Made by a program: the position numbers and the translations under genes. The notes beneath the pieces are model-generated. The model saw only the letters and a program-made list of their open reading frames with translations, had not been told where the DNA came from and made no database searches. DNA of 32,000 nt from Mycolicibacterium smegmatis (GTDB taxonomy: Bacteria; Actinomycetota; Actinomycetes; Mycobacteriales; Mycobacteriaceae), in assembly GCF_001457595.1 (NCBI RefSeq), contig NZ_LN831039.1, positions 90,001-122,000 on the forward strand, given 5' to 3'. Of the stretch, positions 5,245-26,818 are shown one piece after another (position 1 is the stretch's first letter; each line of letters starts with the position of its first letter).

Positions 5245-6042
5245 GTGGGATATCCCGAGTTCCGGGTCATTGAGGAAGCTCTCGATTGGGACCCTGCGGT
5301 GGTGGCGGTACCGCCCGTTCCTGACAACGCTGTCTATGTTCCGGGCGTCGACCCGGTGGGCTTACTTGTGAACGCCGTGATGCCGGGTATTGCGGCCGAT
5401 GTGAATCAGCAAGTTGCGAACACACGTGCGCGCGAGGAACGGTTTGCCAACAACTTGCGGTCCGCGCGAACTGCATATCATCGCACGGATAGTGCCGGTC
5501 AGGCGCAGATCGACAGCGCGGCAAGTACGATCGACCCAGCCGACGCCTTCGGAGCCGGCGTTCCCGTGCAGCCGACGTCGGCGGCCGCGCCTACCGGCGA
5601 TGCGAGCTTCAGCCAACTCACCCAGCTGATGGGCGCGGCGATGCAGGGGGTACAACAAGCAGTGCAAGTGCCGACGCAGGCTGTGGGCACGGGAGCGCAG
5701 ATGGTGCAACCCGTCATGCAGGGCGTCCAAGGAATTGTCCAGCAAAGCACGCCAGCCTCCGGGAAGTCGCAGGACGGCATGGACGGCGAGGGGGACGGAC
5801 CCGGTCATTCACGTGGCGTCGGCCATGAGGATAGATCACAGTCGTTGGCAGGTGAACGCAGTGACAACGGCACTAGGAATGATGTGCCCGAGGATGCAAG
5901 AAAGCCGGACCGGGAGTCGGCCGAGGCAATGGCCCGTGCAGGTGAAAGACCTCTGGCACCGGTCGGTGCACCTCAGGAAGATCCACTGCATCCGGCGAGA
6001 TCCCGATGGACGACACGTAATTCACCGGAGGTGGCGTTGTGA
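5245..6042 (+). CDS. espJ: EspJ-like ESX-1 substrate-type protein, copy 1
   Basis: 265 aa, GTG start. N-terminal helical region carries a YxxxD export-type motif (AYHRTD, nt 5476-5490). The centre is Gln/Ala/Val-rich (QLTQLMGAAMQGVQQAVQVPTQAVG..) and the acidic tail ends EVAL. It resembles my recollection of M. tuberculosis EspJ (..AADVYAKTDQSLG.., Q/A-rich centre). It heads a cassette containing espK and espB homologs; the paralog is at 20049. Confidence 0.6.
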   Translation: MGYPEFRVIEEALDWDPAVVAVPPVPDNAVYVPGVDPVGLLVNAVMPGIAADVNQQVANTRAREERFANNLRSARTAYHRTDSAGQAQIDSAASTIDPADAFGAGVPVQPTSAAAPTGDASFSQLTQLMGAAMQGVQQAVQVPTQAVGTGAQMVQPVMQGVQGIVQQSTPASGKSQDGMDGEGDGPGHSRGVGHEDRSQSLAGERSDNGTRNDVPEDARKPDRESAEAMARAGERPLAPVGAPQEDPLHPARSRWTTRNSPEVAL

Positions 6043-6085
6043 ACCGAAGGAGCCATTGTCGATTCCATGGCGCGGGGGTTCGTAG

Positions 6086-7219
6086 GTGAGCATGCCGCCC
6101 ACGCCTCCTGGATCTGTGCCTCCGCCTCATGGGTTTCCGCCGCCGAGTGGGGGACCAAGCGGATATCCCGGCCCGGCATTCCCATCGCGATCCTGGCAAC
6201 AGCCTCAAGGTCCGAGGCGGGGTAATGGCTGGAAGTGGGCCCTAGGGACCGTGGCCTTGGTCGCTGTAGTTGGAGTAACTGCGGCGGTGACTTCGACCGT
6301 GGTGCATAAGGAAGGTGAAAGTACTTCGCCGTCGGCGGAAGCGCCCACGTCAGCCACAGGCGGTGCGAGCGCAGAGATCGCCAGCTCTGACGACACTCGG
6401 CCGGTCACGGTAATCGCTGAAGATCCATCGTGTGCCGCGGCGACGCCGATTCTGGAGACCCGCGCGGCGATCCAGCGCAACGGTTGGGACAAACGCGACG
6501 CTTCCCTACCCGCTGCCGCATGGTCAGCAGAGGTGCGTGCGCAATATGAAGCAGTGGCGCAGTCGATGCGCCTATCCGCAGATCAATTGGTTCCCGTTGC
6601 AAAGCTCACTCCACATCGCGTCATGCGTGAGCTATACGAGCAAATTATTGCCTACTCGCGGGCGTATGCCGAGAGCGTTTCGGCGTATACGCCCGAAGAC
6701 AACGCCGCGCTGGTAAGTACTAATGCGTCAACCGCGGTATCGCTAATCTGCGTCGCTATCAAGAATGGATCCGCAGCGGCGAGAGGCCCGCTGACTGTTC
6801 AAGGGCCTACACGGTCAGATTTGCAACAAGTGGGCGATGTTTCCAGTCCAGGCCGATTTCTAACCGAGCCGAATCCAGAGTGTTCGACATGGGAAAAGGC
6901 TCTGAATGATTTTGACAATGACACGGTACAGTGGCGTGCGATTTCCGCAGATATCCCAGCAGGGGAATGGACGCCTGAACAGAAATCAATTACCGATGCG
7001 GTGATTCCTGTAATGCGCCGGCTGGCTACTCAGCAGGTACAGTCTGGAGAGCAAAGTGGGAATGCTGTCTGGCGGGACTTTGCTGATTTGTCTGCGCAAT
7101 ACCGCCTTGCATATGCGGAAGCGCTTCCGACGTATGTGGCTTCCGACGACGTTTTATCCGCAGTGTCGCTACGTTTAGGGTCGGTGGTGAGTTCAGCGTG
7201 TCGCCTAGTCGAGAAGTAG
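6086..7219 (+). CDS. Family-A paralog A3 (intact)
   Basis: 377 aa. Head MSMPPTPPGSVPPPHGFPPPSGG.., anchor RRGNGWKWALGTVALVAVVGVTAAVT. Module 1 is C116..C222 and module 2 is C266..C372, so both Cys pairs are spaced exactly 106 residues. Shared motifs are LPAAAWSAEVR / IPAGEWTPEQK and VMRELYEQIIAYSRAYAE / VWRDFADLSAQYRLAYAE. Confidence 0.85.
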   Translation: MSMPPTPPGSVPPPHGFPPPSGGPSGYPGPAFPSRSWQQPQGPRRGNGWKWALGTVALVAVVGVTAAVTSTVVHKEGESTSPSAEAPTSATGGASAEIASSDDTRPVTVIAEDPSCAAATPILETRAAIQRNGWDKRDASLPAAAWSAEVRAQYEAVAQSMRLSADQLVPVAKLTPHRVMRELYEQIIAYSRAYAESVSAYTPEDNAALVSTNASTAVSLICVAIKNGSAAARGPLTVQGPTRSDLQQVGDVSSPGRFLTEPNPECSTWEKALNDFDNDTVQWRAISADIPAGEWTPEQKSITDAVIPVMRRLATQQVQSGEQSGNAVWRDFADLSAQYRLAYAEALPTYVASDDVLSAVSLRLGSVVSSACRLVEK

Positions 7220-7281
7220 GGCCTGTCGTCGGCATTCCGAATGATGGCCGGCCCATGGCCGCCAGATGGGGGCGAGGCTGA

Positions 7282-9003
7282 ATGGCGACTCAACCCGACG
7301 AGAGCTACTACGGCGGGCAGACAGTCACCGGTGCTGGTTGGCCCCACGTTAATGAGGATGTACTCGACGCAACCGCGGATGCATTCGATGACTTGAGGAC
7401 ATTTCTGCGGGATGTAGTTGTTCCCGCTGCGGGTCGGCAGCGTACCAAGTTATCTGATCGCTGGGAAGGCGCAGGCGCGCAAGCCGCGTACGACGAGGCC
7501 AGCGCAATCATCCTCGCACACGAAGCTAGCGAACAAGCTGCTAAAGAAACTAGGGATCAGTTGCGTCTGATGTTCGCGGCGGTCAAGTTTGCGAAGACAG
7601 CTGCGAACAAAACGGCTGAGGAAGTACAGGCTGCCTGCGAGAAGATCATGGGTGAAAAGCCTCCAGCAGAGGGAGAGGACACCCGTAACAGGCGTGCAGC
7701 TGACAAAGTCAAGGAAGGCTATGAGGAGAACGTCCGCTTGGTTTCCGAGTTCTCCAAATGGTTAGCAGAGAAATTGGATGTTCCACCCGATACTCCGGGG
7801 GCGGATGGAAAAGTGCCAACGTCAGAAGCGGAGGGTAAGTCAACTTCACCCGCAGGAGAGGAAGCTGCTGTCGGCGGTAGGGGATCCGCTGGAGGAACAG
7901 GGGTTGTGGCGGATCAGCCACCCCCACCCTCGCTCTTTTCCCCCGTGGCGTACGGAGGTAAGGGTACGGCTCAAGGCACTGGCGTCGTCGCGGATTCGCC
8001 GCCTGCAGACGGTCCCGTGAAATCTGAATCGGGCGGTGGACGGGGTCCAGCCTCTGTGCCTAATGATGTTGACACCCCAGCGACTGTCGGTGGAGACAAT
8101 TCTCCATCGGCGAACAATCCCGAACCTGGCACTCCCAGCATATCGGTGTCCGGAGGCGGCGGTGCACCGTCGCCGAGCGGCGCACCGCAGGGGCCGAGAG
8201 TATCCCCAATGTCGTCGGGCACGGGCAAGGCGGACGCTGTGTCGGCTGAGACAGGTCTAGCCTCCTCCCCGACGCCAGCTACAAGTGGCGGGGCGCCGCA
8301 GAACCCCGCAGAGCAGTTCCAAAAAGGGTTGGCAGATGCGGCGAAGAACGGTGGGTCGCCACAGACGCTGTCGTCTACCCCGTCGCAGCCGCTTGGCGGA
8401 CCGCCAACGACACAGCCACTCGGCACTCCGCCCCCAACGGCAGGCCCTACCGCTCCGCCTACGACCGGAGGCCCGCCAGCACCGGTCGCGCAGGCAGCAG
8501 GTGGACCTGGCGGCGGGGCTGGGCCAGCACCTGTGGCGCCACCCCCAAGCGGAGGTGTCCCAGGTGGGGCGGTCCCGTTGGGACCTCCACCGACTCCTCC
8601 ACTAGCGGCGCCTGTGACGACGCCGTCGCCGGCGGCCGGTCCGCCTGTTGCTCCCACGGGTGCGGCAGCTGGTGCGGCCGGTGGTGGAGGTGCACAGGTC
8701 GCGCCGATTCCGGTGTCGGCGGCACGAGCCGAACGCGACCTTGCCCAACGAGCGGTTCGACGGTCGGGCGTGGATCCGATGGAGACTGCGCGCAGGATTG
8801 CAGCCGCGCTGAACGCCCCTGGGATGACCAACGTCGAGGATTTCAAGTTCTTCTGGGTCACAGGCCTCACGACCGACGGAAAGATCGTCGTCGCCAACAA
8901 CTACGGAATTGCCTACATCCCTCAGCAGGTGCATTTGCCTGAACAGGTGCATATGGCATCTGCCGATGGGCCGAACACAACGGGAAGACCTTGCGCGCAG
9001 TGA
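7282..9003 (+). CDS. espK: EspK-like protein, N-terminal/central part (copy 1); ends prematurely relative to M. tuberculosis EspK
   Basis: 573 aa. N-terminal helical domain with WxG (DRWEGAG), then a long Pro/Ala/Gly/Ser-rich linker. This is followed by [47 protein letters not shown]. That matches the EspK (Rv3879c) region I recall as [47 protein letters not shown]. The ORF terminates as ..[16 protein letters not shown]. Confidence 0.8.
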   Translation: [573 protein letters not shown]

Positions 9004-10517
9004 TCGCGACAGAGGATCAGCTGAAAAACTCCGATGCCGGCGTGCACCACGAGGTTTTGAAGCCTGAGGACATCCCTGAGAGCGGCAAGATGGCTGGTCG
9101 CGATCGCCTGCAGGTGATCGCTCCGGATGTGAGCTCGCAGTTGGCGCGGATCAGCGACACCGACCTGGTGAGCGTCCTACCGCCGGCGCCCGCTGATTCG
9201 AATCCGCCAGAAGACCGTCGGAAATCGTTGTGGGACAATGTCTGGAAGCCGTTGGCAAGTCGTTCCGCGAAGCGAGGGGAGAGGCACCTGACGGCCTTCG
9301 TGGCGTACGCGTCACACGCCCAGGAACACGCGCTTTACGCAGCACACACGGCAGCGCTCCCTGATGAGCAGCGGCAGGCGATCCGCGAGTTCATCTATTG
9401 GCAGCACGTCGGCCAATTGACGGCCGACGCCTTGGCCCCCGCGTGACGGTGCCAGTGATTCGACACGGAAAGCTGTTGCGCGCCGGTCGGGAAATTGACG
9501 CAAAACGCTCGGCCGAGTCGACCTTATGATTGCCTACGGAACACAACCGGGCGAGTTGGTGTTGACGGCAGCTGTTTGCGGGGGTGGCTTTGGATTCGCC
9601 AGTTTCGCGAATCTTCTGCCGCATCCGGTGTAGCGGACGCAGGGAGGGTGATCGGCTATGAGCGAGGAGTTGCAGTATGAGCTCCCAGGGCTGGAACGAA
9701 AAGCCCATGAATGCGAGTCGACTCGTCCCGAGGGCCCCGGCGACGCGACGAAGCCAGACGAACTCGCCACCACCGCGAGTGTCTATAGCAAGCTCATGGT
9801 GTCTGCCGCCAAACTGAAAGCGACGTTTGCAGCGGGAGACCGCGAGGGCGAGCGTATTGCGGCCGCCATCCGCGCCGCGGCGGGCGCCTACCAGAAGATC
9901 GAAGAGCAGAAGGCTGCCGAACTGAACCGTCAGATGAATGGCAGCGACGCCCCGCAGCCTGCGGCCGAGGCGGTGGTCCCTGACATGTCCGGTATCCCTG
10001 GCCCGTTGACCATCCCGTCCATGGAATACCCATCTGCTGCGGCTGCCGCGGACGAAATGGATTGGGAGGCAGCCGCGAGGATCATACATAGCGGCGATAC
10101 GCAGGCCCTGTCGATGAAGTACTTCCGAGATCAGTGGCGGGACTATCAGTCCACGCTGGAGGGCCACGGGCGGCATTTTGCGAACCCGGCGGAAGGTTGG
10201 TCGGGCGCAGCCGCAGAAACCTGTGCTGAGGCTCAGCGGAGACTGTCGACGTGGTGGGCTGATATGGGTGCGGAGTGTGGCCGTCTGGCCCAAGAGGCCA
10301 CGACATTTGTCGATGCGCACGACAAGTTGGTCGCGAACCACCCCACCTTGGAAAACGTCAGAGAATTCGAGGAAACAGAGTGGGCGTCTGAGTGGGATCG
10401 GCAAAACGCCTGGGCGATGCTGCAGGAGCAGTCGGAGGACGCGCTCGAGGCTTACGCAAACGGCAGCCAAATCCAAGAAATCCGTCCAGGGAAACCGCCG
10501 TCGATCGGTGGCCTTCC
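8476..10517 (+). repeat. Near-identical 2,042-bp core block, copy 1 (espK 3' part, espK-C ORF, 210-bp spacer, espB 5' 860 nt)
   Basis: Line-by-line comparison with 23305-25346 showed only three differences (9010 A/G, 9026 A/G, 9032 C/G). Mismatches become frequent immediately outside both ends (8475 G/T; 10518 C/T onward). Confidence 0.85.
8991..9446 (+). CDS. espK: EspK C-terminal domain encoded as a separate ORF (copy 1)
   Basis: 151 aa from TTG 8991, or 148 aa from GTG 9000, which overlaps the upstream stop as GTGA. [43 protein letters not shown].. matches the EspK C-terminus I recall ([43 protein letters not shown]..). The frame is -1 relative to 7282-9003. Confidence 0.75.
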   Translation: [151 protein letters not shown]

Positions 10518-11220
10518 CGCGGTGAATGACGGCGACGTCCAAGCCACGCCGACTTCAAGCCCGGGAGGACCAGGCGGACCGGGCAGTGGCTCGGGCGGCG
10601 GGGGCGGTGGTGGAGGCGGCGCGCCTGAGATGCCGGAGATGCCGTCGATGGAACCGGCTGTATCGCCTGTCGGGAATTCCCCAGGGGGAGAACAACCTTC
10701 AGGTTCGCCTTCCGGTGGTGGCTCGCCGTCTGGCGGTTCACCATCTGGTGGTTCGCCCTCTGGTGGTGGCGCGCCCTCCGGGGGTGGCATGCCGGAAGGC
10801 GGCCTTCCCACGGATATGCCTGGCGGCCCAGAGATTCCGGGTCTCGACGATCCCAGCCTGAACCCGGCCAGCGCCGGTGGTGGCGGCGGAGGGGGAGTTG
10901 GCGGTGGTGGCGGCGGGATGCCTGCCGCACCGCTGGGCCCCCCTGTCGGCGCGGACTCCGTGGCCCCTTCGCCGTCCAGCGCGCGTGGCGGCGCCGTGGG
11001 CGTCCCGGGTGGCCCGGCCGGCGGCGGTATGGGCGGCATGATGGGCGGCGGCATGGGTGGAATGGGCGCGGGCCACGGCCAGGGCGGCCAGGGCAAGGAG
11101 AAGCGCCGCGATCCGAAACTGTCTCCAGACGAGGACCTTTACACGGAAGACCGTGCTTACACCGAAGGGGTCGTCGGCCATCGTCCGCGCAGGGAGAAGG
11201 ACAGCGGCAAGCAGCAGTAA
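9658..11220 (+). CDS. espB: EspB-like ESX-1 substrate, copy 1
   Basis: 520 aa. The N-terminal helical PE/PPE-like domain carries YxxxE (AYQKIE, nt 9889-9903) and WxG (EGWSG, nt 10198-10206). The C-terminal half is Gly/Pro/Ser-rich low complexity. The conserved tail DEDLYTEDRAYTEGVVGHRPRR compares with M. tuberculosis EspB ..ALYTEDRAWTEAVIGNRRRQ. SD-like GGGAGGG precedes the ATG. Confidence 0.9.
   Translation: MSEELQYELPGLERKAHECESTRPEGPGDATKPDELATTASVYSKLMVSAAKLKATFAAGDREGERIAAAIRAAAGAYQKIEEQKAAELNRQMNGSDAPQPAAEAVVPDMSGIPGPLTIPSMEYPSAAAAADEMDWEAAARIIHSGDTQALSMKYFRDQWRDYQSTLEGHGRHFANPAEGWSGAAAETCAEAQRRLSTWWADMGAECGRLAQEATTFVDAHDKLVANHPTLENVREFEETEWASEWDRQNAWAMLQEQSEDALEAYANGSQIQEIRPGKPPSIGGLPAVNDGDVQATPTSSPGGPGGPGSGSGGGGGGGGGAPEMPEMPSMEPAVSPVGNSPGGEQPSGSPSGGGSPSGGSPSGGSPSGGGAPSGGGMPEGGLPTDMPGGPEIPGLDDPSLNPASAGGGGGGGVGGGGGGMPAAPLGPPVGADSVAPSPSSARGGAVGVPGGPAGGGMGGMMGGGMGGMGAGHGQGGQGKEKRRDPKLSPDEDLYTEDRAYTEGVVGHRPRREKDSGKQQ
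10702..10788 (+). repeat. Imperfect in-frame tandem repeat (15-21 nt units) encoding GSPSGG-type units in the EspB-like tail
   Basis: The read units are ggttcgccttccggtggt / ggctcgccgtctggc / ggttcaccatctggt / ggttcgccctctggtggt / ggcgcgccctccgggggtggc. They encode GSPSGG GSPSG GSPSG GSPSGG GAPSGGG. The paralog at 25540-25630 has a related but different unit series. Confidence 0.8.
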
Positions 11221-11324
11221 CGTCGTCAGGAAACCATGTCCCGCGCAACATGCTGCCAACCATGTTCTGAGGTCAAGGCTTTGGGACATTCCCGACGCCG
11301 GCGACGTAAACGTGTGTGCGGTGA

Positions 11325-11633
11325 GTGTTAAGGTTCGACGTGCTTGCCGCCACACGTACTTATCTCCTGCTGGGATTCTTCGTTCTGTGTGGAGCATGGA
11401 TTCTGCAGGCGACATCGCACGGCGTTCTCGTCACCATCGCAATCGTCGCGCTGTATGTGATCGGAATCGGGCTGATAGCGGTCGGTTGCTACTACTACCG
11501 GCAGCTTCCTTGGCCGGAACCTGAACGGCAGAGGAAGGTCGGCGCACCGGTCGCCGTTTTCGGCTTTATCGTCATCGCGATCAATCTGGGGGCCTTCGCA
11601 GTCTTCCTTATCTGGGAATACCTGCTGAAATGA
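11325..11633 (+). CDS. Small 3-TM membrane protein (102 aa), copy 1
   Basis: Three hydrophobic helices: YLLLGFFVLCGAWILQA, GVLVTIAIVALYVIGIGLIAVGCYY and VAVFGFIVIAINLGAFAVFLIW. It is conserved (most residues identical) with the ORF at 26147-26455 in the same position after espB. The start is ambiguous (GTG 11325 or GTG 11340). Confidence 0.65.
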   Translation: MLRFDVLAATRTYLLLGFFVLCGAWILQATSHGVLVTIAIVALYVIGIGLIAVGCYYYRQLPWPEPERQRKVGAPVAVFGFIVIAINLGAFAVFLIWEYLLK

Positions 11634-11673
11634 ACGTCCTGAGCGCCTGGCCTATTGAGGGCTGGGCGATCGA

Positions 11674-11785
11674 TCAGCGACCGTGCATCTCGCCGTCGAG
11701 GTCACCCGCCTTGGCCGCATCCGTGCGCTCGTACTTGGTGGCCGCTTCGTCCAACTTCTCGGCAAGTGACGTAGAAACGTTTTGC
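11674..11785 (-). pseudogene. 3' stub of an EspC/EspF-like gene, truncated by the IS1096-like element
   Basis: The reverse strand reads ..GDLDGEMHGR* with stop TGA at 11674-11676. At nucleotide level it matches the 3' end of the intact gene at 26468-26785 (..GDLDGEMHGS*) up to the IS left end at 11786. The 5' two-thirds are absent. Confidence 0.8.
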
Positions 11786-11849
11786 GGCTCTTCGCACTTG
11801 ACGGTGTAGAGACGATCAGCTGCTTTCGCGCTGTGATCGAGGGGTCTGG

Positions 11850-12602
11850 TTGGCTTGGGGTGTGCCGGAGAAGAAGCGGAAGAGCAAGAGGAAGAGCGGA
11901 GTGTCCGGGGGCAGTGTGGACCTGGCGTTGCTGCAGAAGCTAATGGCCGACGCTGGTCGGAACGTGTTCGCGGGAATGTTCGATGAGCCGACGCCCGAGG
12001 TGCGGGCGGTGCCGGATCGTGCGCGGGGCTTCCGGGTGCGCGTCGACCTGATGTACGCCAAGCCGCCGATCTGGCGTCGGCTGGACCTGCCGGGCGACCT
12101 CATGCTCGATGAGCTCCATGTTGTGCTGCAGGTCGTTATGGGCTGGCAGGACAGTCATCTGCATAAGTTCGGTGTCGGGGCGGACCGGCGGACCCGTGCC
12201 TACTTCGTCACCGGGTTTGATCTCAGCGAAGGCGACGACGGTGTCGTCGAGGACAGCGTGCGCCTCGATCAGGTGGTGTCCGATAAGGGCGAGCGGTTGT
12301 TCTACGATTACGACTTCGGCGACGGATGGGACCACGTGCTCGTGGTCGAAGACGTTTTCGATGATCCGCCCCCGGCTGCGGTGTGTCTGACGGGAAAGAT
12401 GGCCTGTCCGCCGGAGGACTGTGGTGGCCTGGGCGGCTATGAGGAGTTGGCTGCGTGGGTTCGCGGCGGGTACGACCCGCGGGAAACGCCGATGGGACTC
12501 GGTGCGCAGGAGATGAGGGACTGGCTGCCCCGGGGCTGGCACCCCGACCGTTTCTCGGTGGCCGAGACCAATGACGCTCTGGCCGCGTTGAACACGCGTT
12601 GA
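11850..12602 (+). CDS. tnpR: IS1096 TnpR-type passenger protein (pRiA4b ORF-3-like domain)
   Basis: 250 aa (TTG 11850 or GTG 11862). It has a Lys/Arg-rich N-terminus. The motifs FRVRVDLMYAKPPIWRRLDLPGDLMLDELHVVLQVVMGWQDSHLHKF..YDYDFGDGWDHVLVVE..CPPEDCGG are the conserved signature of the pRiA4b ORF-3 / IS1096 TnpR family. Confidence 0.85.
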   Translation: MAWGVPEKKRKSKRKSGVSGGSVDLALLQKLMADAGRNVFAGMFDEPTPEVRAVPDRARGFRVRVDLMYAKPPIWRRLDLPGDLMLDELHVVLQVVMGWQDSHLHKFGVGADRRTRAYFVTGFDLSEGDDGVVEDSVRLDQVVSDKGERLFYDYDFGDGWDHVLVVEDVFDDPPPAAVCLTGKMACPPEDCGGLGGYEELAAWVRGGYDPRETPMGLGAQEMRDWLPRGWHPDRFSVAETNDALAALNTR

Positions 12603-12609
12603 GGATTCT

Positions 12610-13932
12610 TCACCGCCGAGGTTGACGGAGCTGGGTTCGGAAGCCTCCGGTCTCGAGCAGGGACCGGGCGATGTAGTTGGTGAGGTTGCGGAAGCCCAGG
12701 GCGGATCCGCGCAGGTGTTCGAGGCGGCCGTTGATCGCTTCGGTCGGCCCGTTGGAGGTGCCGGGGCGGTCGAAGTAGGCCAGGACGTCGGCGGCACGCT
12801 TCTTCAGTGTCCGCCCGAGGGTGATCAGCTCGGTCAGCGACGTGGGGACGCCTGTGCTCAGCGTGGTGATCAGTGCAGCCATCATGGTGCGGCCCTTGGT
12901 GCGGTCTGGTTCGCGGTAGGCGGCCACGGTGCGTTGATACATCGCCCAGGTGGCCTCGATCTCGGCGTGCGCGTTGGCGGCGAACAGTGCGGCCAGTCGG
13001 GCTTTCTGGCGGTCGGTGAGCAGGTCGGCCCCGGTGTGCAGGGTGCGTCGCGATCGGTAGAGCGGGTCGGTGCTGCGGCCGCGGTGCCCGCAGGTGGCCA
13101 GCTGCACGCGGCGTCGGCACTCGTCGAGGGCGTTGCCGGCCAGGCGGACCACGTGGAAGGGGTCCATCACCGTGGCCGCGTCAGGCAGTTCTTCGGTGGC
13201 GGCGGTCTTGAACCCGGAGAACCCGTCCATGGCAACAACGTCCACACGATCACGCCACTCCTGTGGCCGCTGTGCCAGCCAGTCGGCGAACGCCTTCTTG
13301 GAGCGGCCCTCCACCATGTCGAGCAGCCGTGCGGGGCCGGTCCCGTCACGCACGGGCGTGAGATCGATGATGACGGTGACGTACTTGTCGCCGCGGCGAG
13401 TGTGCCGCCACACGTGCTCATCGACGCCGATCACCGCGACGCCATCGAACCGGGCCGGATCGGCGATGAGCACCCGCTGACCTTCGGCGAGCACGGCGTT
13501 GTTGGCAGTGTTCCACGACACCGCAAGCGCCTCGGCGACCCGGGCCACCGACAGGTGTTGGCAGACAAGGGCTTCCAGCGCCCACCGCAGAGCACGCCGG
13601 GACAGCCTGGCCCGCGGTTCGGCTGCGGCGCTGGCATCCTGGCGCCACACATGAGCGCAGCCGGCGCAACGGTAACGGCGGATCGTGACCAGCAAAGCCG
13701 TGGGTCGCCACCCGAACGGTTCATGAGCCAACGTGCGAGTCACGCTGTCACGTACAACGCCTTCTTCGCCGCAGCGGCGGCACCACCGATCCTCATCGGC
13801 GACCCGGCACGCCAGCACGGCCCGATCAGGGTCGAGGCGTTGGCCGGTCACCTCCAACCCGAGCTCGTCGAGGCGGCAGAAAGTCGTCAGGTCAGCGCAG
13901 GCGAAGCCCGCCCGACCGGTAGCGTCAGGCAC
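12610..13932 (-). CDS. tnpA: ISL3-family transposase (IS1096 TnpA-like)
   Basis: 440 aa, GTG start. Cys cluster (CRRCGEEG.., YRCAGCAHVW), then VIGVDEHVWRH..VAMDGFSGFKTA..VMDPFHVVRLA... The C-terminal SNGPTEAINGRLEHLRGSALGFRN motif is typical of ISL3 transposases. Confidence 0.9.
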   Translation of the reverse strand: MPDATGRAGFACADLTTFCRLDELGLEVTGQRLDPDRAVLACRVADEDRWCRRCGEEGVVRDSVTRTLAHEPFGWRPTALLVTIRRYRCAGCAHVWRQDASAAAEPRARLSRRALRWALEALVCQHLSVARVAEALAVSWNTANNAVLAEGQRVLIADPARFDGVAVIGVDEHVWRHTRRGDKYVTVIIDLTPVRDGTGPARLLDMVEGRSKKAFADWLAQRPQEWRDRVDVVAMDGFSGFKTAATEELPDAATVMDPFHVVRLAGNALDECRRRVQLATCGHRGRSTDPLYRSRRTLHTGADLLTDRQKARLAALFAANAHAEIEATWAMYQRTVAAYREPDRTKGRTMMAALITTLSTGVPTSLTELITLGRTLKKRAADVLAYFDRPGTSNGPTEAINGRLEHLRGSALGFRNLTNYIARSLLETGGFRTQLRQPRR

Positions 13933-14042
13933 GTCGAGGTCTTTCAGATGGATGGCGTAGGAACCTCCATCATCGGAAGACCTCGACCCCTATCCCGGCA
14001 CCGACGCGCCGACGACCTCTACACCCTCAACTGCGAAGAGCC

Positions 14043-14925
14043 ACCAATCTGTTGCCGGAATATTCGGATCAGTCTGCACCCACGCGGTGGTGTCAGACTT
14101 GAATTGGTCCATTACGTGCGCCCACTCATCACAAACAGGATCCCGAGTTAGCAGGAAACGTTGTGGGTCGTTCGTGTTCCCGATCGGCGAAACCTGAGTC
14201 GGTGGTGCGAGCGGTGTGACAAGTGGACCCCGAGCAGCCGCGGATCCGAACTCAATCGCTGAACAAATATTTCCGATTGTTTCAGTGATTGCGATTGTGA
14301 CACGTGCGAATTGATCGGCCGGTGGCGCGTAGTCAGGAATGCTCGCTGCATACGTACGGGAGTATGCGATGAACTGCTCATAAAGTTCTCGCATAACTCT
14401 ATGTTGTGCCATTCTGGCCACAGGTACGATCTGGTCAGCAGCGTTTCGCAGAGCGTCTGCCACCTCGTCGTACTGAGACCGAATTTCCGGACTCCATGAA
14501 CTCGCCGGAATTGATGGATCCCGTTGCCCCCATCCATTCTTAGATGTGCGTATCCAGGTAGTCATAATCGGGTACTGCGCTGCGCACGACGGATCGTCGG
14601 TGATTACAGAGACGGGACCGGTATCGTCGGCGCTGGCGACTTCTGCGCTAGCTGTCCCATTAACCGACGGCGGTGGCGCGCTTGTATTCGACCCACTATT
14701 CCCAGGGTCCTTGCTAGCGACCGACAACGTCACAGCTGCCGTCACCCCGATCACGACGACCAGTACTACTCCGCCCAAGATCCACTTCCATCCGTTGCCC
14801 CGCTTCGGAGATTTCGGAGGTTGATGCCAAGCATCAACAGGGTGTCCAGGTCCACTCAGCCCGCCTTGCGGCGGCTGGAAGCCATTCGGAGGCGGCACAG
14901 AACCAGGAGGAGGAGGAAAGCTCAC
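14043..14925 (-). pseudogene. Family-A paralog A4, 3'-truncated by the IS1096-like element (inverted orientation)
   Basis: GTG 14925. MSFPPPPGSVPPPNGFQPPQGGLSG..RGNGWKWILGGVVLVVVIGVTAAVT..DDPSCAAQYP.. runs to ..TAWVQTDPNIPATDW and then directly into the IS inverted repeat. The last 17 residues of the 311-aa track ORF are IS-encoded. The closest relative is A5 (20908). Confidence 0.85.
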
Positions 14926-14980
14926 CGATGAACCTCCGTACCAATACCGCTATGGCGCAACCCAATACCTCCACCGTTAC

Positions 14981-15103
14981 TCACAATGCGACCTCCGGCG
15001 CGGCTTCCGCGATCCTTTGATGTCGTTGCTTCTGTTTAACATGTTGCGAATCCAGCGAAGCATCAACCGGCGCCTGCGCCCCTTCACCGACATCTGCCCC
15101 AGC
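14981..15103 (-). pseudogene. 3' fragment of a third EspJ-like gene (inverted)
   Basis: The reverse strand encodes ..AGADVGEGAQAPVDASLDSQHVKQKQRHQRIAEAAPEVAL* (stop at 14981-14983). This is nearly identical to the C-terminus of the ORF at 20049-20852. The 55-bp spacer to A4 also matches 20853-20907. Homology stops at 15103, next to the IS1380-like element. Confidence 0.8.
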
Positions 15104-16804
15104 CCTGGGTGTCAGGGTGAGTTGAGTCCACTGGTACTTAGCCTGAATCCGTGGAGCGGCCCTCCTTGAGGTGTCCGTGTGTGGTTTCTGCTGCGTTCGG
15201 TGTTGCGGGCATGCGGTAGTTGCTGGTCTGCCCAGCTTTTCCTGTGTGCTCCGGTTGGGCCTGTTCGGCGCGTTGGTCAGGTCGTTGCCGGTAGCGGTGG
15301 GCTGTATCCGATGGTGTTGCGCCACAACGTGAGCCAGTGCTCTGTCCAGGGCCAGTGCTCGGGGAGGTGCAGGATCGGTCGACGCTGGGGTCGGGCCAGA
15401 CGGGCGGGAATGTTGACGATCTTGCGGCGCAGCGTCGCGCCGCGGGCAACCACGTGGGCACCTCCTGCGAGCACGCCGGCGGCGCGCAGCAGGTTGTGCG
15501 CGATCGCCGCGCACAACACCCACGCACTGTTGGCACCGAACTGTCCTGAGGGCATGTGGGCCAGGGGTCCGTCGATCAGATCGGCGAAGACGGTTTCGAT
15601 GATCGCGTGCTGGCGGTGGGTGATGTCAGCCTCGGCGGTCGGCAAGTCTGTGTTGGTGAAGAACGGGTGATACCGCCACACCGGGAACAGCGCGTCCCGA
15701 AATCTCGCGTCTTTGACTCGCCGCACCACCAACCGCGCGGTGAACCGATCTTTGGTAGAGGCGAAGGCGGTGTAGCTGACCTCGGCGACCTCGGCATCAG
15801 AAATCCAGTCACCGGTGTCGGGATCACGCACTGCACCGGGATAGTTGACCGGCTCCCAGGCCTGCTCGTCGATCGAACTGATGGCCCGATCAACCGCGGT
15901 ATTGCGGGTCATCACCACCGAGAAGTGCGCATTGTGGGCTCGGCAGGCGCCCACCACCGACCGGGTGCCGTAGGACGAATCGCCACGCACCAGCAGTTGC
16001 CCGCGCACGCCGGCGGCGCGGGCGGTGGCGATGGCTTGGGCGACCATGCGGCCCGCACCCTTCCCGGAACTGGTCTTACCGGCGCGCAGCCGCATCCCGG
16101 CGATCACCGGCGCCGCTCCGGGGGTGCTGATCGTCGTCGCCAACGGGGAGAGCCCTTTACGCAGAACCTGCTTACCAGCGATCTTGGTATGCCCGTAGGA
16201 GGCACCCTGTTTGGCGTGGCCATAGACCGGGCGCAGCAGTGAGTCGATGTCGATGAACGCCCCCGTGTCGGATCCGGGCAGCAGGTCCACCCGCGCACAG
16301 AGTGCGGCCAGATGATGACGCAGGACCGACTCCAACTGCCGGGCGTGTCCGAAGGTGAACTCCCGCAACAGTGTTCCGATCGTCGATGGTGCATAGACCC
16401 CATCGAAGAGCGTCTTCATCCCGCCGCCACGCACGAGGTCGAGGTCATCAATGCTGTCGGCGCCGGCGCACATTCCGGCGACCACGGTGAGCAGCTTCGG
16501 CGACGGGTTGGCCGACCCGGACTTGATCCGTGGTTCGCTGATACGAACCTTGTCGGCCAGCAACTGTGACAGCCCGGTCTGGGTGGCCAGCGTCATTACC
16601 GGCACCAGACCGGCGCACGACACGAGATGGGCATCATCGAAGACCGCCGACGACGCAGCGAACCTATGGGACACTTTCACCGGAAGTGCCTTTCGAAGTT
16701 GTGCCGATAAGTGCCTAGAGAACACTCATCATCACAGCTCAGAAGGCACTTTCCTCGTCACGACACCCTGCGACCAGCCAATTCATCGGTGGATCGAGGC
16801 TTAG
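15104..16804 (-). mobile_element. IS1380-family-like insertion sequence (ends approximate, about 1.67 kb)
   Basis: It has a single long DDE transposase ORF. Two alternative imperfect terminal repeat pairings (15104.. with ..16773, or 15137.. with ..16804) each match about 12 of 17-18 positions, so the ends are not resolved. It is bounded on the left by loss of espJ homology at 15103 and on the right by the IS3-family element at 16823. Confidence 0.55.
15277..16725 (-). CDS. IS1380-family-type DDE transposase
   Basis: 482 aa (GTG 16725; an internal GTG near 16680 is possible). The N-terminus ..FDDAHLVSCAGLVPVMTLATQTGL resembles that family. The C-terminal HRQHAIIETVFADLIDGPLAHMPSGQFGANSAWVLCAAIAHNLLRAAG motif is characteristic of IS1380/IS4-like transposases. 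The family call is from memory, not a search. Confidence 0.7.
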   Translation of the reverse strand: MFSRHLSAQLRKALPVKVSHRFAASSAVFDDAHLVSCAGLVPVMTLATQTGLSQLLADKVRISEPRIKSGSANPSPKLLTVVAGMCAGADSIDDLDLVRGGGMKTLFDGVYAPSTIGTLLREFTFGHARQLESVLRHHLAALCARVDLLPGSDTGAFIDIDSLLRPVYGHAKQGASYGHTKIAGKQVLRKGLSPLATTISTPGAAPVIAGMRLRAGKTSSGKGAGRMVAQAIATARAAGVRGQLLVRGDSSYGTRSVVGACRAHNAHFSVVMTRNTAVDRAISSIDEQAWEPVNYPGAVRDPDTGDWISDAEVAEVSYTAFASTKDRFTARLVVRRVKDARFRDALFPVWRYHPFFTNTDLPTAEADITHRQHAIIETVFADLIDGPLAHMPSGQFGANSAWVLCAAIAHNLLRAAGVLAGGAHVVARGATLRRKIVNIPARLARPQRRPILHLPEHWPWTEHWLTLWRNTIGYSPPLPATT

Positions 16805-16855
16805 CAACTTGGCAACTTGGCTTGATCTCGGGGCGAGAACGGAATCACCTGAACC

Positions 16856-17284
16856 ATGACGACGACGATGGCTGCTGTGCGCGAGACTGGAGCGGTGGCA
16901 CCTTCACCGCGATCTGATGGCCCGCGCCGGCGGCGCTCGATTTCTCCGGCGCAGAAGCTGGCCCACCTGGATGCCTATGAGCAGGCCTGTACGACCAACG
17001 ATGGTGGGGCGTACCTGCGCGGTGAGGGGTTGTATTCCTCGCAGATCGCCGAGTGGCGCAAACAACGCGATGCTGGGGTGTTGGAAGGCAAGGCACCTGG
17101 GGAGAAGGTCGGTAAACTCACCCGCGAGCAGGCCGAGATCGCCCGCCTGAAAAAGGAACTCGCCCAGGCCAATAATCGGCTGGCGACCACCGAGGCTGCC
17201 CTGGGGATCATGGGAAAAGCACACGCGCTCTTGGAGTCTCTCTCCGAGAGCGCGGACACCGACACGCCGCCGACCAAGCGCTGA
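16856..17284 (+). CDS. IS3-family OrfA (HTH / leucine-zipper type)
   Basis: 142 aa. ..ISPAQKLAHLDAYEQACTTNDGGAYLRGEGLYSSQIAEWRKQRDAG.. is HTH-like. It is followed by the coiled-coil REQAEIARLKKELAQANNRLATTEAALGIMGKAHALLE, typical of IS3 OrfA. The stop TGA overlaps the orfB ATG (TGATG at 17282-17286). Confidence 0.8.
   Translation: MTTTMAAVRETGAVAPSPRSDGPRRRRSISPAQKLAHLDAYEQACTTNDGGAYLRGEGLYSSQIAEWRKQRDAGVLEGKAPGEKVGKLTREQAEIARLKKELAQANNRLATTEAALGIMGKAHALLESLSESADTDTPPTKR
17212..17218 (+). promoter_or_regulatory. Candidate -1 ribosomal frameshift heptamer G_GGA_AAA in IS3 orfA
   Basis: In the orfA frame the codons read atg gga aaa gca, so nt 17212-17218 fit the X_XXY_YYZ slippery pattern. 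The orfB (-1) frame is open from 17176, so a slip here would give an OrfAB fusion. No downstream structure was assessed. Confidence 0.3.
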
Positions 17285-17939
17285 TGGATGCCTACAACGA
17301 TCTGCGGGATATCCAGATTCCGACCCGCAAGGCCGCGGAGGTGACCGGCATGCACCGCTCGACGGCCACTCGACGCGCCAAACCCGCGCCGGCGCCTGCC
17401 GATCGGGCACCACGACCGGTCCCGGTCAACAAGCTCACCGAGTCCGAATGCGCCCGGGTGGTTGAGGTGCTCAACAGTGCCCGGTTCGTCGATGCCGCGC
17501 CGATGCAGGTGTGGGCCACGTTGCTCGATGAAGGCAGCTACCTGTGTTCGGTGTCGACGATGTACCGCGTCCTCAATGCCAACAAGCTGGTCAAGGAGCG
17601 CCGTCGGCTGGCCCGGCACCGCAAAGCGGTCTGCCCGGAACTGGTGGCCACCGCGCCGCGGCAGGTGTATTCGTGGGACATCACCAAACTGGCCGGCCCG
17701 GTCAAAGGGGTCTACTACGACGCCTACGTGATGATCGACATTTACTCGCGTTACATCGTCGGGGTCCATGTGCACGCCCGCGAATGCGGCCAGCTGGCCA
17801 AGGAGATGATGGAACAGATCTTCGGCACCTACGGCATCCCACACGTCGTGCACGCTGATCGGGGCACCTCGATGACCAGCAACACCGTCGCCGGACTGCT
17901 CTCGGATCTGGGCGTCATCCGCTCGCATTCGCGGCCCAA
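17284..17939 (+). pseudogene. IS3-family OrfB (rve integrase-type transposase), 5' part, interrupted by IS256-family element
   Basis: ..QVYSWDITKLAGPVKGVYYDAYVMIDIYSRYIVGVHVH..YGIPHVVHADRGTSMTSN..IRSHSRPK is a DDE/rve core. The reading frame then enters the IS256-family inverted repeat at 17940. The tail of the 238-aa track ORF is IS-derived. Confidence 0.85.
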
Positions 17940-19427
17940 GAGGAATTGTCAATACCTGTGGATCGGGGTGTTTCAGGCGACCTCCGTTCCGGCGTGCTGA
18001 CCGCCGTCTGAGGGCGATGTTGGCGGGGTGATGTCGGTGGGTCGTTCGAGCAGTCTGCCTTTATGGAAGACCGCGCCGGCGCGGACCAGGGCGACCAGGT
18101 GTGGGGCGTTGACGGCACGCCAGCGGGCCGCGGCGGCGTCGATGAGCTTGTAGGCCATCGCTAGTCCGGCCGCTCGTGATCCGGGCCCCTTGGTGACCTT
18201 GGTCCTCAAACGCACTGTGGCAAAGGTGGATTCGATCGGATTCGTCGTTCGCAGATGAATCCAATGTTCGGCCGGATACTTGTAGAATTCCAGCAGCACA
18301 TCGAGGTCGTCGGTGATCTTAGCGACCGCCTTGGGATACTTCGCGCCGAAGTCGGCCTCGAAGGCCTTGACCGCGATCTGGGCCTTGTCGATATCCTCGG
18401 CGTTGTAGATCTCCTTGATCGCCGCCAGCGCCGACGGGTGCGCTGATTTCGGCAGTGCAGCAAGAACATTGGCCTGCTTATGAAACCAGCACCGCTGCTC
18501 TTTGGTGGCCGGGAAAACCTCGCGGACTGCTTTCCAGAACCCGAGCGCGCCATCGCCGATCGCGAGTACGGGGGCGGTCATGCCGCGGCGCTTGCAGTCG
18601 CGCAACAGATCGGCCCACGACTCGGCCGACTCGCGGTAGCCGTCGGTGATCGCCACGAGCTCCTTGCGGCCATCAGCACGCACGCCCAGCATCACCAGCA
18701 GACAGAGCTTTTCCTGGTCCAGCCGCACCTTGAGGTGAATGCCGTCGACCCACAGATACACGTAATCAGTGGCCGAGAGGTCGCGGGCCCCAAACGCGCG
18801 GGCCTCGTCTTGCCACTGCGCCGTGAGCCGGGTGATCGTGCTGGCCGACAGCCCAGCGCCGGAGCCGAGGAACTGCTCGAGGGCAGGGGTGAAATCGTTG
18901 CTCGACAGGCCGTGCAGGTACAGCAGCGGCAGTACCTCGCTCATCTGCGGCGACTTGCGCGCCCAGGCCGGCAGGATCGCCGAGGAGAACCGCTTGCGTT
19001 CACCGGTGTCGGGGTCGACACGGCGGTCGTTGACCCGCGGCGCTTTCACCTGCACCGCGCCGGCGGCGGTCAGCACCTCCCGGGGCTGGTGATAGCCGTT
19101 TCGCACCACCAACCGGTGACCGTTCTCGTCGAGTTGATCGGCGAACTGCGCCACGTAGGCGGCGACCTCGGCCTGCAACGCCGCGGCCAGCATCTGCCGG
19201 GCCCCGTCGCGGACGATCTCATCCAACAACGACCGACCAGCACCGCTGGCCTTGTCGTTGGCGTCCTCGGTGTCGTGAACTACGGTGAGCATGGGCGTAC
19301 CTTCCCAACCAGCGCGCCAACGCCGGTCTTGATCGAATACCTGATTCCGTGAAGATCATCCCCGGGAAGGTGCGCCCATCTTCACGCCCCCACACCGAGG
19401 CTCATCCACAGGTATTGATCATTGCTC
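17940..19427 (-). mobile_element. IS256-family element (IS6120-like, 1,488 bp) nested in IS3 orfB
   Basis: Inverted repeats GAGGAATTGTCAATACCTGTGGAT (17940..) and GAGCAATGATCAATACCTGTGGAT (reverse complement of ..19427). There is a perfect 9-bp target-site duplication GCGGCCCAA (17931-17939 and 19428-19436). Removing the element and one duplicate restores ..HSRPKVSNDNPYSESWF... Confidence 0.9.
17973..19292 (-). CDS. IS256-family (mutator-type) transposase
   Basis: 439 aa, ATG start. LLDEIVRDGARQMLAAALQAEVAAYV.., ..YVYLWVDGIHLKVR.., ..LAIGDGALGFWKAVREVFP..QRCWFHKQANVL.., ..HLRTTNPIESTFATVRLRTKV are the conserved blocks of IS256-family transposases. Confidence 0.92.
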   Translation of the reverse strand: MLTVVHDTEDANDKASGAGRSLLDEIVRDGARQMLAAALQAEVAAYVAQFADQLDENGHRLVVRNGYHQPREVLTAAGAVQVKAPRVNDRRVDPDTGERKRFSSAILPAWARKSPQMSEVLPLLYLHGLSSNDFTPALEQFLGSGAGLSASTITRLTAQWQDEARAFGARDLSATDYVYLWVDGIHLKVRLDQEKLCLLVMLGVRADGRKELVAITDGYRESAESWADLLRDCKRRGMTAPVLAIGDGALGFWKAVREVFPATKEQRCWFHKQANVLAALPKSAHPSALAAIKEIYNAEDIDKAQIAVKAFEADFGAKYPKAVAKITDDLDVLLEFYKYPAEHWIHLRTTNPIESTFATVRLRTKVTKGPGSRAAGLAMAYKLIDAAAARWRAVNAPHLVALVRAGAVFHKGRLLERPTDITPPTSPSDGGQHAGTEVA

Positions 19428-19436
19428 GCGGCCCAA

Positions 19437-19790
19437 GGTATCCAACGACAACCCCTACAGCGAGTCCTGGTTCAAGACCTTGAAGTATGCGCCGGCGTTC
19501 CCGGAACGCTTCGAATCCATCCATCACGCGAGGTCATGGACCGATTCGTGCAGTGGTACAACCATGAACACCGCCACAGCGGCATCGGGCTGCACACACC
19601 CGCCGATGTGTTCTACGGCCTCGCCGGCGGGAAAGACACCCAGCGCCGAGCCGTGCTCGCCGACGCCAGGGCGCGCCACCCACGCCGATTCGGCCGCGAC
19701 ACCGCACCCAAGGTCATCGACCTACCTGAATCCGCGGCGATCAACCCACCCAAACCGGCCGAACAGGAGACCGAAACGGAAGCCGCTTAA
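19437..19790 (+). pseudogene. IS3-family OrfB, 3' part, with an additional frameshift
   Basis: This part continues ..(K)VSNDNPYSESWFKTLKYAPAFPERFESIHHARSW in one frame. The expected ..DRFVQWYNHEHRHSGIGLHTPADVFYG.. then continues in the next frame to TAA 19788-19790. That implies a 1-nt indel near 19535-19540 (tgg-ac region). Confidence 0.75.
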
Positions 19791-20048
19791 CACCCACTGG
19801 ACTCAAACACCTTGACAAATTCCGAGGGGCCGTCTTTATCAGGCTGAAGGTGTGCCAGGGATAGTCGTAGAGGCATGACCCTCGCATGGGGTGGGTCCGG
19901 GCGCTGCTGTATCCAACGCCGATGACGTTGCGGAATTTGGCGTGTCCGTACTGCCATACCGACCGTTAAGCTGAGTGTGGCTAACGTTGCGCAGGTGGGT
20001 CGGACTACATCGCGGGTGCGCCACGGGTTCGTGTGAGGGGAAGGGCTA

Positions 20049-20852: not shown

Positions 20853-20907
20853 GTAACGGTGGAGGTATTGGGTTGCGCCATAAAGGTATTGGTACGGAGG
20901 TTCATCG

Positions 20908-22059: not shown

Positions 22060-22116
22060 CCGATTTCAGGATCGCGTTCTGGGTTGAAACTCTGGTTTAC
22101 GAGGTGACAGGCACGG

Positions 22117-26052: not shown

Positions 26053-26146
26053 GAACCGTGATCAGACCAGTGCGCTACGAAACATGTTCAAAGCACGTGG
26101 GTTTGGGAGCGCCAGGAGAGCAGCAGCGAGTACGTATGTGCGGTGA

Positions 26147-26455
26147 GTGTTAGGGTTCGACGTGCTTGCCGCCACACGTACATATCTTCTGCTCGGCTTC
26201 TTTGTCTTGTGCGGAGCATGGATTCTGCAGGCGACGTCACACGGCGTTCTCGTCACTGTCGCAATTGTCGCGCTGTATGTGATCGGAATCGGGCTGATAG
26301 TGGTCGGTTGTCACTACTACCGGCAGCTTCCTTGGCCGGAACCCCAAAGGTATAAAAAGGTCGGGGCTCCGCTTGCGGTGTTCGGTTGGATCGTGATCGC
26401 AATCAATCTTGGGGCGTTCGTCGTCTTTCTTGTTTCGGAATATCTACTGAAATGA
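26147..26455 (+). CDS. Small 3-TM membrane protein (102 aa), copy 2
   Basis: Paralog of 11325-11633 with the same three hydrophobic helices. Its stop lies 12 bp from the stop of the convergent espC/F-like gene. Confidence 0.65.
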   Translation: MLGFDVLAATRTYLLLGFFVLCGAWILQATSHGVLVTVAIVALYVIGIGLIVVGCHYYRQLPWPEPQRYKKVGAPLAVFGWIVIAINLGAFVVFLVSEYLLK

Positions 26456-26467
26456 ACGGGCGGCGCT

Positions 26468-26785: not shown

Positions 26786-26818
26786 CGGGAGTCCCTTTCG
26801 TCGAGCCTCGGTACTTCA

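Follow-up and report, generated by a model that had tools for sequence, protein, structure and literature searches.

Tandem mid cassettes with a nearly identical espK–espB core in the esx1 region of Mycolicibacterium smegmatis

The mid region and its duplicated core

The stretch of DNA analysed here, referred to as the window, comprises 32,000 nucleotides of the Mycolicibacterium smegmatis contig NZ_LN831039.1 (positions 90,001 to 122,000) and is the esx1 mid (mating-identity) region of this organism, the locus that decides which M. smegmatis cells mate. Downstream of an EccD gene it carries two cassettes, A and B, which are followed by the genes for EccE and the S8 protease MycP. The cassette genes are arranged in the order Msmeg0069, Msmeg0070, Msmeg0071 (EspK) and then Msmeg0076 (EspB), as in the published mid locus, and the genes called EspJ-like, family A and EspK in the initial annotation are Msmeg0069-, Msmeg0070- and Msmeg0071-like mid genes. 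The encoded proteins of cassettes A and B measure 265 and 267 amino acids (aa; Msmeg0069-like), 377 and 383 aa (Msmeg0070-like) and, when intact, 742 and 740 aa (EspK). The Msmeg0070-like proteins belong to PF27060 and possess a transmembrane (TM) helix near residues 50–75, EspK contains the domain EspK_C (PF27215), and EspB starts with a PE/PPE-like helical domain that matches the structure 4WJ2 over residues 1–296 (642 bits), with only 5 of the 296 residues different from the mc2155 protein represented by that structure. According to published work, Msmeg0069, Msmeg0070 and Msmeg0071 over its N-terminal two-thirds are polymorphic, and the mid region shows rearrangements, duplications, extra paralogues and insertion sequence (IS) elements (Gray et al. 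2013, PMC3706393; Clark et al. 2022, PMC9040860). A role in self-identity and conjugal compatibility was demonstrated for Msmeg0070 of mc2155, Jucho and MKD8 (PMC9040860), and its discoverers put forward the speculation that evolution has a hot spot at this locus, which would be 'continually revised'.

One property of the two cassettes is a shared segment, here called the core, that runs from the second half of espK into espB (Table 1). The initial annotation reported a block of 2,042 bp with three differences, and an ungapped comparison of the two copies gave the same figures. The differences are A/G at 9011, A/G at 9026 and C/G at 9032 (copies A/B), so that two of the positions reported earlier are correct and the third, 9010, is displaced by one base. 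In a gapped MAFFT alignment of the cassettes (~5150–11780 and 19960–26573) the block is 99.85% identical. Identity per 100 columns amounts to 0.97–1.00 in the block as compared to 0.66–0.77 just left of it, 0.72–0.84 just right of it and 0.35–0.65 further left, and the non-uniform identity along the cassettes that had been noticed before is thus evident from the sliding profile. In the same alignment the three 5' genes fall in a tier of ~40–65%, and the segments 8311–8475 and 10518–11779 in a tier of ~72–88%. The transitions, described earlier as sharp, are so at the level of single bases, with the left edge at 8475/8476 and the right edge at 10517/10518. When the 324 differences over 3,478 alignable columns were permuted 20,000 times, the longest run with at most three differences was 243 bp, against the 2,042 bp observed (P < 5e-5; analytic P ~1e-217 at a flank divergence of 0.224 per site).

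In the true EspK frame all three mismatches fall on third codon positions and are synonymous; they lie together in a patch of 22 bp (9011–9032; 23840–23861 in copy B), which is the sole site of A/B differences; the probability that three random sites of 2,042 would cluster within 22 bp is 3e-4. They are located 47–68 bp 3' of the junction of a 64-bp deletion in espK that is discussed below.

Related loci, designated by L-numbers, were recovered by exact-protein look-ups. The set includes two further complete genomes, GCA_019930745 (S1, of which copy B is L004) and GCA_021183665 (S2), several draft assemblies, the loci L007 and L042, and the more distant lineages L037 and L039–L041. A contig scan with EspB was dominated by Gly/Pro-rich low-complexity patterns, and its sole match was from M. 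septicum (51%). All three complete genomes, including that of the window, possess both cassettes with identical block edges, and the 3' half of the block (9483–10517) is without a single A/B difference in each of them.

The right edge of the core lies at most ~5 codons from the end of the structured EspB domain. As stated in the initial annotation, EspB residues 1–286 are inside the block; they include the Pfam domains EspB_PE (11–84) and EspB_PPE (135–282). The left edge is found ~101 codons upstream of the EspK C-domain, within a Pro/Ala linker, and in L007, which represents a third haplotype, the left breakpoint is at 8689, 213 bp further in.

Outside the block the divergence between the cassettes is strong, and the earlier estimate that the EspJ-like, family-A and EspK N-terminal proteins are roughly half identical agrees with the amino-acid identities of 58%, 56% and 38%, respectively; the EspB tails are 87% identical. 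From codon 399 onward, the EspK proteins of A and B are 100% identical. Synonymous divergence (dS, Nei-Gojobori) between the cassettes is 1.8 for the EspJ-like gene, saturated for the family-A gene and the EspK N-part, 0.85 for 8311–8475, 0.97 for the EspB tail and 0.54 for the gene encoding a protein with three TM segments (3TM). For the block, the same method gives 3 differences in ~445 synonymous sites (dS ~0.007) and zero replacement differences. A single duplication age is indeed insufficient to explain a dS of ~0.007 in the block next to values of 0.5 to saturation in the flanks. The espK–espB spacer, previously given as 210 bp, measures 211 bp and is identical at all 211 positions, as compared to 38–73% identity for other spacers. 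The flank genes are under purifying selection, with ratios of replacement to synonymous divergence (dN/dS) of 0.08–0.19, yet their dS is at least 0.5. Because the synonymous sites of the block are nearly and the spacer is wholly identical while flank genes under purifying selection have a high dS, the identity of the block is due to recent common ancestry via recombination rather than to selection.

An alignment with L003, L004, L005 and L007 revealed that both EspK copies of the window are without 64 bp that lie between direct repeats of 5 bp (CGATG), the junctions being at 8963/8964 and 23792/23793. The frames stop at 573 aa (A) and 571 aa (B) in the window, as compared to 742 and 740 aa in the sister genomes. 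The deletion is present in both copies of the window, in one copy of S1 and in neither copy of S2. It begins ~60 residues into the EspK C-domain, and since both copies are cut by it the window has no intact in-frame EspK C-domain. The separate EspK-C open reading frame (ORF) of the initial annotation does exist, but the alignment indicates that it is the leftover of this frameshifting deletion rather than a gene of its own, intact EspK being found elsewhere. An exact look-up of the 151-aa remainder ORF gave no match; gene callers start this ORF at 148 aa.

The deletion is important for the suggestion that the block is an interaction module. The intact EspK C-region of a sister strain matches residues 484–729 of M. 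tuberculosis EspK (PDB 8AKO chain B, E = 1.3e-73), and the EspB N-domain matches both 4WJ2 and 8AKO chain A. Binding of the EspK C-terminal domain to the EspB N-domain, which the initial annotation had mentioned, is published and includes the M. smegmatis pair, as established by size-exclusion chromatography (Gijsbers et al. 2022, PMC9811218); no cross-interaction is seen between EspK and EspB of different species (PMC9811218). The Lys and Ser residues that contact EspB (K663 and S667 in M. tuberculosis; PMC9811218) fall in the out-of-frame remainder in the window. L007 encodes an intact EspK of 765 aa, together with a third type of left island. Selection for a working EspK-C/EspB-N pair would not be expected to leave the chaperone domain broken in both copies, and the deletion thus argues against selection for an intact pair. 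The proposal that the homogenised segment corresponds to the interaction module is weakened, and the block does not coincide exactly with such a module: the left edge lies well upstream of the C-domain, the L007 breakpoint is at a different position, and the deletion cuts the domain itself.

Variable islands and probable exchange between the cores

The flanks of the core can be traced in part to other lineages. L042 carries an A-type 3' end at the resident position, where it is 99.6% identical to cassette A and runs directly into ESX core genes. As compared to cassette B, L042 is 100% identical in the block, 70–90% identical over ~2.2 kb that start at EspB codon 287 and take in the 3TM, EspC-like and EspA-like genes, and 93–100% identical beyond. 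The B-type 3' end is the common type (mc2155, M. goodii and others). Since L042 has the A-type end at the resident position and diverges from B over these ~2.2 kb, the locus contains a second variable island, of which the A-type and B-type 3' ends are alleles.

With outside sequences included, the relationships of the segments are incongruent. In the core, A, B and L007 are 98–100% identical, L037 is at 80–85% and L039/L040 are at 60–66%. In the EspB tail and 3TM gene, cassette A is 97.9–99.3% identical to L039/L040 as compared to 78.5% to B. At the level of single bases, cassette A follows B as far as 10517 and L039/L040 from ~10573 onward. In the linker part of the core (8476–8688), A and B are the same and both are 98.6% identical to L037, with L007 at 49%. 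Such incongruence indicates foreign flanks as much as a converted core. Because the 3' island of cassette A groups with a lineage of which the core is only 60–66% identical, the pattern reflects foreign flanks in the main, and less a homogenised core. For the most part, the sharp edges are the joins of horizontally exchanged hypervariable islands to a species-typical core, and the cassettes look like two stacked mid haplotypes, not like an old duplication. Of the earlier proposal, gene conversion of EspK-C/EspB-N with diversification elsewhere, the first part is supported by signs of inter-copy exchange among the sister genomes (see below), but the second is not, the flanks being mainly foreign islands on a conserved core.

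Some further observations concern these islands. The 55-bp junction 10518–10572 of cassette A is 71% identical to B and 62% to L040 and matches neither; it may stem from a third source or be a recombination scar. About 1.5 kb of the right island (EspB tail, 3TM, EspC-like; window 10573–11785) are ~100% identical between L042 and L039/L040, whereas their ESX core genes are only ~85% identical, which points to very recent transfer between lineages. Over the EspK linker and the first part of the C-domain, the segment L037:1–558 (window 8411–8968) matches cassette A at 98–99%, as compared to 80–85% in the remaining core, and this inter-lineage breakpoint adjoins the site of the 64-bp deletion. An EspB of 523 aa from a Logan contig (P0011) combines a B-type proximal tail with an A-type distal tail, and is either a true A/B tail recombinant or a chimeric unitig that arose because the strain has two cassettes. 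Another genome encodes two different EspK_C-containing proteins (P0022 and P0024), and stacked cassettes are probably not unique to this lineage. A plasmid origin of cassette A was considered as well, but a search of PLSDB in distant mode gave no match.

Comparison of the window with S1 and S2 offers a view of more recent events. These genomes have 5–7 differing sites in the ~28 kb outside the cores, as compared to 10 single-nucleotide polymorphisms (SNPs) plus the 64-bp indels inside the 4 kb of the cores, an enrichment with odds ratios of 11–14 (p ~1e-6). At nine variable sites, the 64-bp indel among them, A-type and B-type alleles have changed places, with L007 serving as the outgroup for allele polarity. 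The B-type alleles are the intact 64 bp, 8990T, 8999T, 9002C, 9011G, 9026G, 9032G, 9460C and 9482A, and the A-type alleles are the deletion, 8990C, 8999A, 9002G, 9011A, 9026A, 9032C, 9460T and 9482G. In S1, copy A is purely A-type and copy B purely B-type, with 13 SNPs and the indel between them. S2 has a mosaic copy A and a B-type copy B, both with the 64 bp intact, and 5 SNPs between the copies. In the window, copy A is purely A-type and, as far as the assemblies are concerned, the same as copy A of S1; copy B is A-type at the indel and at 8990, 8999, 9002, 9460 and 9482, and the stretch 9011–9032 is the exception, which leaves the three SNPs between the copies. The recombinant haplotype (B flank, deletion and 9011G) also occurs, 100% identical, in the independent short-read assembly L021, and is thus not the error of one assembly. 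These allele patterns support exchange between the two core copies, and the three differences that remain are most readily understood as a patch, either unconverted or restored, within an A-to-B tract that is discontinuous.

Several points weigh against within-genome exchange. Differences that are confined to repeats among near-identical genomes are also expected from polishing or hybrid-assembly errors, and most of the inter-strain SNPs outside the block are in IS copies too. The three genomes and several of the drafts may be re-sequencings of one strain lineage. The A–B divergence of the cores in S1 (13 SNPs, 0.64%) is within the normal range between strains, the divergence between L007 and the window core being 0.4–0.7%. 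Since this is the ordinary between-strain level, as judged from L007 and the mc2155 EspB, the original near-identity needs no conversion within a genome. Some patches could have been imported by conjugation (distributive conjugal transfer, DCT) instead of being copied from the neighbouring cassette, and copy B of S1 has 4–5 private core SNPs that are matched by no sampled copy.

Four private SNPs of L004 are at the window equivalents of 8490, 8493, 8841 and 9062, and the neighbouring 15 kb have none; these SNPs may stem from a donor that is not in the sample. The inter-strain SNPs outside the block, at 3609, 3693 and 3694 (ISL3 transposase), 15283 and 17452, are in multicopy IS elements, and could be the result of conversion among IS copies or of polishing errors in repeats.

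Other features of the window

The positions of the cassettes, their parts and the elements around them are given in Table 1. Members of the Msmeg0070-like family (PF27060), to which the self-identity determinant belongs, are found as six genes or fragments within the 32 kb and are 31–59% identical to the first copy; one of these genes is split by an ISL3 insertion (2956–4323), and another is both truncated and inverted. The espK–espB spacer (9447–9657) yielded no sigma-70-like promoter, and no Rfam family was found in the block.

Table 1 Features of the mid region (positions in the window)
Feature	Position	Strand	Remarks
Haplotype A	~5150 to 11785		Mid cassette
Haplotype B	~19960 to 27540		Mid cassette, continues into eccE1/mycP1
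Left hypervariable island A	5245..8475	+	Msmeg0069-like (EspJ-like) 5245-6042, Msmeg0070-like 6086-7219, EspK N-part; dS 1.8 to saturated vs B
Left hypervariable island B	20049..23304	+	20049-20852, 20908-22059, EspK-B N-part
Conserved core, copy A	8476..10517	+	Last ~101 EspK linker codons, EspK C-terminal EspB-binding domain, spacer, EspB 1-286
Conserved core, copy B	23305..25346	+	3 mismatches to copy A
EspK-A (Msmeg0071-like)	7282..9003	+	573 aa, deletion-truncated; N-part to 8310 hypervariable
64-bp deletion junction, EspK-A	8964..8968	+	Retained CGATG; frameshift, C-domain cut at ~residue 562 of 742
EspK-A C-domain, out-of-frame remainder	8991..9446	+	Keeps the conserved Lys and Ser contacting EspB
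EspK-B	22117..23832	+	571 aa, same deletion; remainder ORF 23820-24275
64-bp deletion junction, EspK-B	23793..23797	+	Copy B intact in GCA_019930745 and GCA_021183665
espK–espB spacer	9447..9657	+	211/211 identical to 24276-24486
EspB-A, chimera	9658..11220	+	N-domain resident-type, as in B; tail from ~10573 almost identical to L039/L040
EspB-B	24487..26052	+	Tail type common in M. smegmatis (as mc2155)
Right hypervariable island A	10518..11785	+	EspB tail, 3TM 11325-11633, EspC-like remnant; IS at 11786 ends the island
Right hypervariable island B	25347..27540		EspB tail, 3TM 26147-26455 (+), EspC-like 26468-26785 (-), EspA-like 26819-27553 (-)
IS1096-like element	11786..14042		PRiA4_ORF3 gene and ISL3 transposase; terminates cassette A
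Inverted partial third cassette	14043..15103	-	EspJ-like 3' end and truncated Msmeg0070-like gene; 82-90% identical to B
Inter-cassette IS cluster	15104..19960		IS4-like, IS3 interrupted by IS256-like element, debris
Msmeg0070-like genes and fragments	1268-2368; 2544-2933 + 4438-4719; 6086-7219; 13990-14925 (-); 20908-22059		

The IS1096-like element that terminates cassette A is 100% identical to a copy in Mycobacterium phage LouisV14 (MG099946.1), which was grown on mc2155, and the unit is multicopy in CP102342.1. Its PRiA4_ORF3 gene was tried as a marker for the A-type 3' end and rejected, being a multicopy IS passenger gene that is useful only for defining the IS. In other strains (L030, L032 and L033; window equivalent 7726–7742) the same IS has inserted into the EspK-A N-part, or the contig ends at this point, so that the cassette is struck repeatedly by IS elements. 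In L042 (GCA_009764675) the EspB N-domain is interrupted at the window equivalent of 10158 by the end of the element that starts at 15104 (L042:1–35 equals window 15138–15104 on the minus strand). Two M. smegmatis small RNA (sRNA) families of Rfam, Ms_IGR-7 and Ms_AS-8, are found at 16681–16798 and 19328–19402, inside the IS cluster, and these 'sRNAs' probably belong to IS ends.

Origin of the arrangement and comparison with known systems

Taken together, we consider it probable that the window contains tandem mid haplotypes, with islands recombined onto a conserved core and with short, patchy exchange between the two copies of this core. The islands segregate as alleles that are very old or were exchanged horizontally, and the sequences show that the edges of the block are recombination junctions between such islands and a common core; at the right edge, cassette A passes within 55 bp from identity with B to ~98% identity with a distant lineage. 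In the simplest reading, variable islands, some of them exchanged between lineages, were recombined onto the species-typical core, and two haplotypes of this kind later came to lie in tandem, with the join marked by the IS elements at 11786 and 15104–19960. Between the tandem cores, short and non-reciprocal exchange (gene conversion) probably continues, and the genome comparison suggests that copy B took over A-type alleles, including the 64-bp deletion, except in the 22-bp patch. The extent of such exchange is probably set by where homology ends, and not by selection on EspK-C/EspB-N.

A different history can be envisaged, in which the whole cassette was duplicated in tandem long ago and the copies diverged, one recent conversion homogenised the EspK-C/EspB-N module, and selection for matched pairs maintains it. 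The sharp tract edges and near-zero dS would fit, as would the binding of the EspK C-domain to the EspB N-domain and the failure of cross-species pairs to interact (PMC9811218), the right edge at the end of the structured EspB domain, and the invariant 3' half of the block in three genomes. We nevertheless regard this history as unlikely. The 3' island of cassette A groups with a lineage that has a different core and is resident in L042, so that the flanks are not the descendants of one duplication, and the segment matrices are incongruent. Moreover, the left edge is far upstream of the C-domain and is not shared by L007, and both copies have come to carry a frameshifting deletion by which the chaperone domain is cut.

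Equally, there is only a small chance that haplotypes were stacked without any exchange within the genome, the cores being alike by species-wide conservation and the differences being due to DCT imports or new mutations. The S1 divergence of 0.64% equals that between strains, DCT is able to make micro-mosaics a few bases apart (PMC3706393), and the private SNPs in S1 copy B are as would be expected. However, the nine sites, including a 64-bp indel, match the allele of the neighbouring copy in genomes that are otherwise near-identical, and import from outside would need to have spared the adjacent flanks every time.

It is very unlikely that the block is an assembly artefact, in which copies were collapsed or cross-polished and the true copies are more different, even though the differences between sister assemblies are concentrated in repeats and in one draft contig, L006, the block connects the 5' flank of A with the 3' flank of B. 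The identical block is not the product of one assembly, since the edges are common to the two other complete genomes and drafts break inside them. Independent short-read contigs have their ends 127 bp within each of the edges (L029 at 8602, L022 at 23431, L043 from 10391), and two draft assemblies have a partial EspB of 287 aa on a stand-alone contig of exactly 2,042 bp. This is the behaviour of de Bruijn assemblers at a true near-perfect repeat of such length. Reading L006 as a real single chimeric cassette, composed of an A 5' half and a B 3' half with deletion between the cores, was rejected, because in that assembly the A 3' end sits on a separate contig of 1,392 bp (L044) and both cassettes are thus present in the strain; in a sister assembly the B 5' flank is routed into the block (L021). 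Finally, purifying selection alone has a negligible chance of accounting for the identity of the coding parts, and is in fact ruled out by dS and the 211/211 spacer: both segments encode structured, interacting domains, but synonymous sites and spacer are as identical as replacement sites, and the flank genes combine low dN/dS with high dS.

If tandem haplotypes with continued exchange are indeed what the locus contains, duplicated cores that exchange short patches can spread a deletion disabling the EspB chaperone to both copies. A more far-reaching idea, which we hold to be quite improbable, is that the EspK-C/EspB-N core acts as a portable homology anchor for stacking, exchanging and deleting mid cassettes. 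A cell could then possess several identity haplotypes, the six Msmeg0070-like genes and fragments would be a reservoir of identities, and conjugal compatibility would be changed by recombination, much like mating-type cassettes.

In the yeast MAT/HML/HMR and the Neisseria pilE/pilS systems, variable identity segments are bordered by conserved sequence that enables non-reciprocal exchange. By analogy, the mid cassettes may be viewed as having a similar layout of variable identity segments bordered by conserved, exchange-supporting sequence. The difference is that there is no evidence here for silent as opposed to expressed copies, for a dedicated nuclease or for programmed switching, and that only the conserved part, not the variable part, is seen exchanging. 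Gene conversion between paralogous ESX-associated genes (esx and PE/PPE families) has reportedly been described for M. tuberculosis by Uplekar et al. in 2011. The likeness is in near-identical tracts within diverged paralogues of type VII substrates and in patchy exchange of variants; here, in contrast, the organism is a saprophyte that conjugates, the partners are alleles of a kin-recognition locus that have been stacked, and the tract spans two genes and a spacer. With the EspK–EspB chaperone–substrate pair (PDB 8AKO, PMC9811218) the M. smegmatis proteins share homologous domains and the conserved EspB-contacting Lys and Ser, but both EspK genes of the window are cut in the C-domain and the contact residues persist only in the out-of-frame remainder.

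The closest known system is the published esx1 mid locus of M. smegmatis itself: the species, the position between eccD1 and eccE1/mycP1, and the genes (Msmeg0070-like of ~380 aa, Pro-rich, with a single TM helix) are the same. The text of Clark et al. (2022, PMC9040860) does not contain the terms 'gene conversion', 'espB' or 'espK', and two complete stacked cassettes, base-level edges, shuffling of alleles between copies and the 64-bp deletion are absent from that work. It treats Msmeg0076–0083 as conserved, whereas here the segment from the EspB tail to the EspA-like gene, hitherto regarded in that way, emerges as a second variable island with two allele classes. What the window adds is a base-level picture of how the locus could be revised, with islands that are exchanged around a fixed core, the breakpoints being in low-complexity linkers, and with haplotypes that can be stacked. 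These are known processes in a known locus, well resolved; they leave the understanding of ESX-1 and of gene conversion unchanged and refine that of the mid system.

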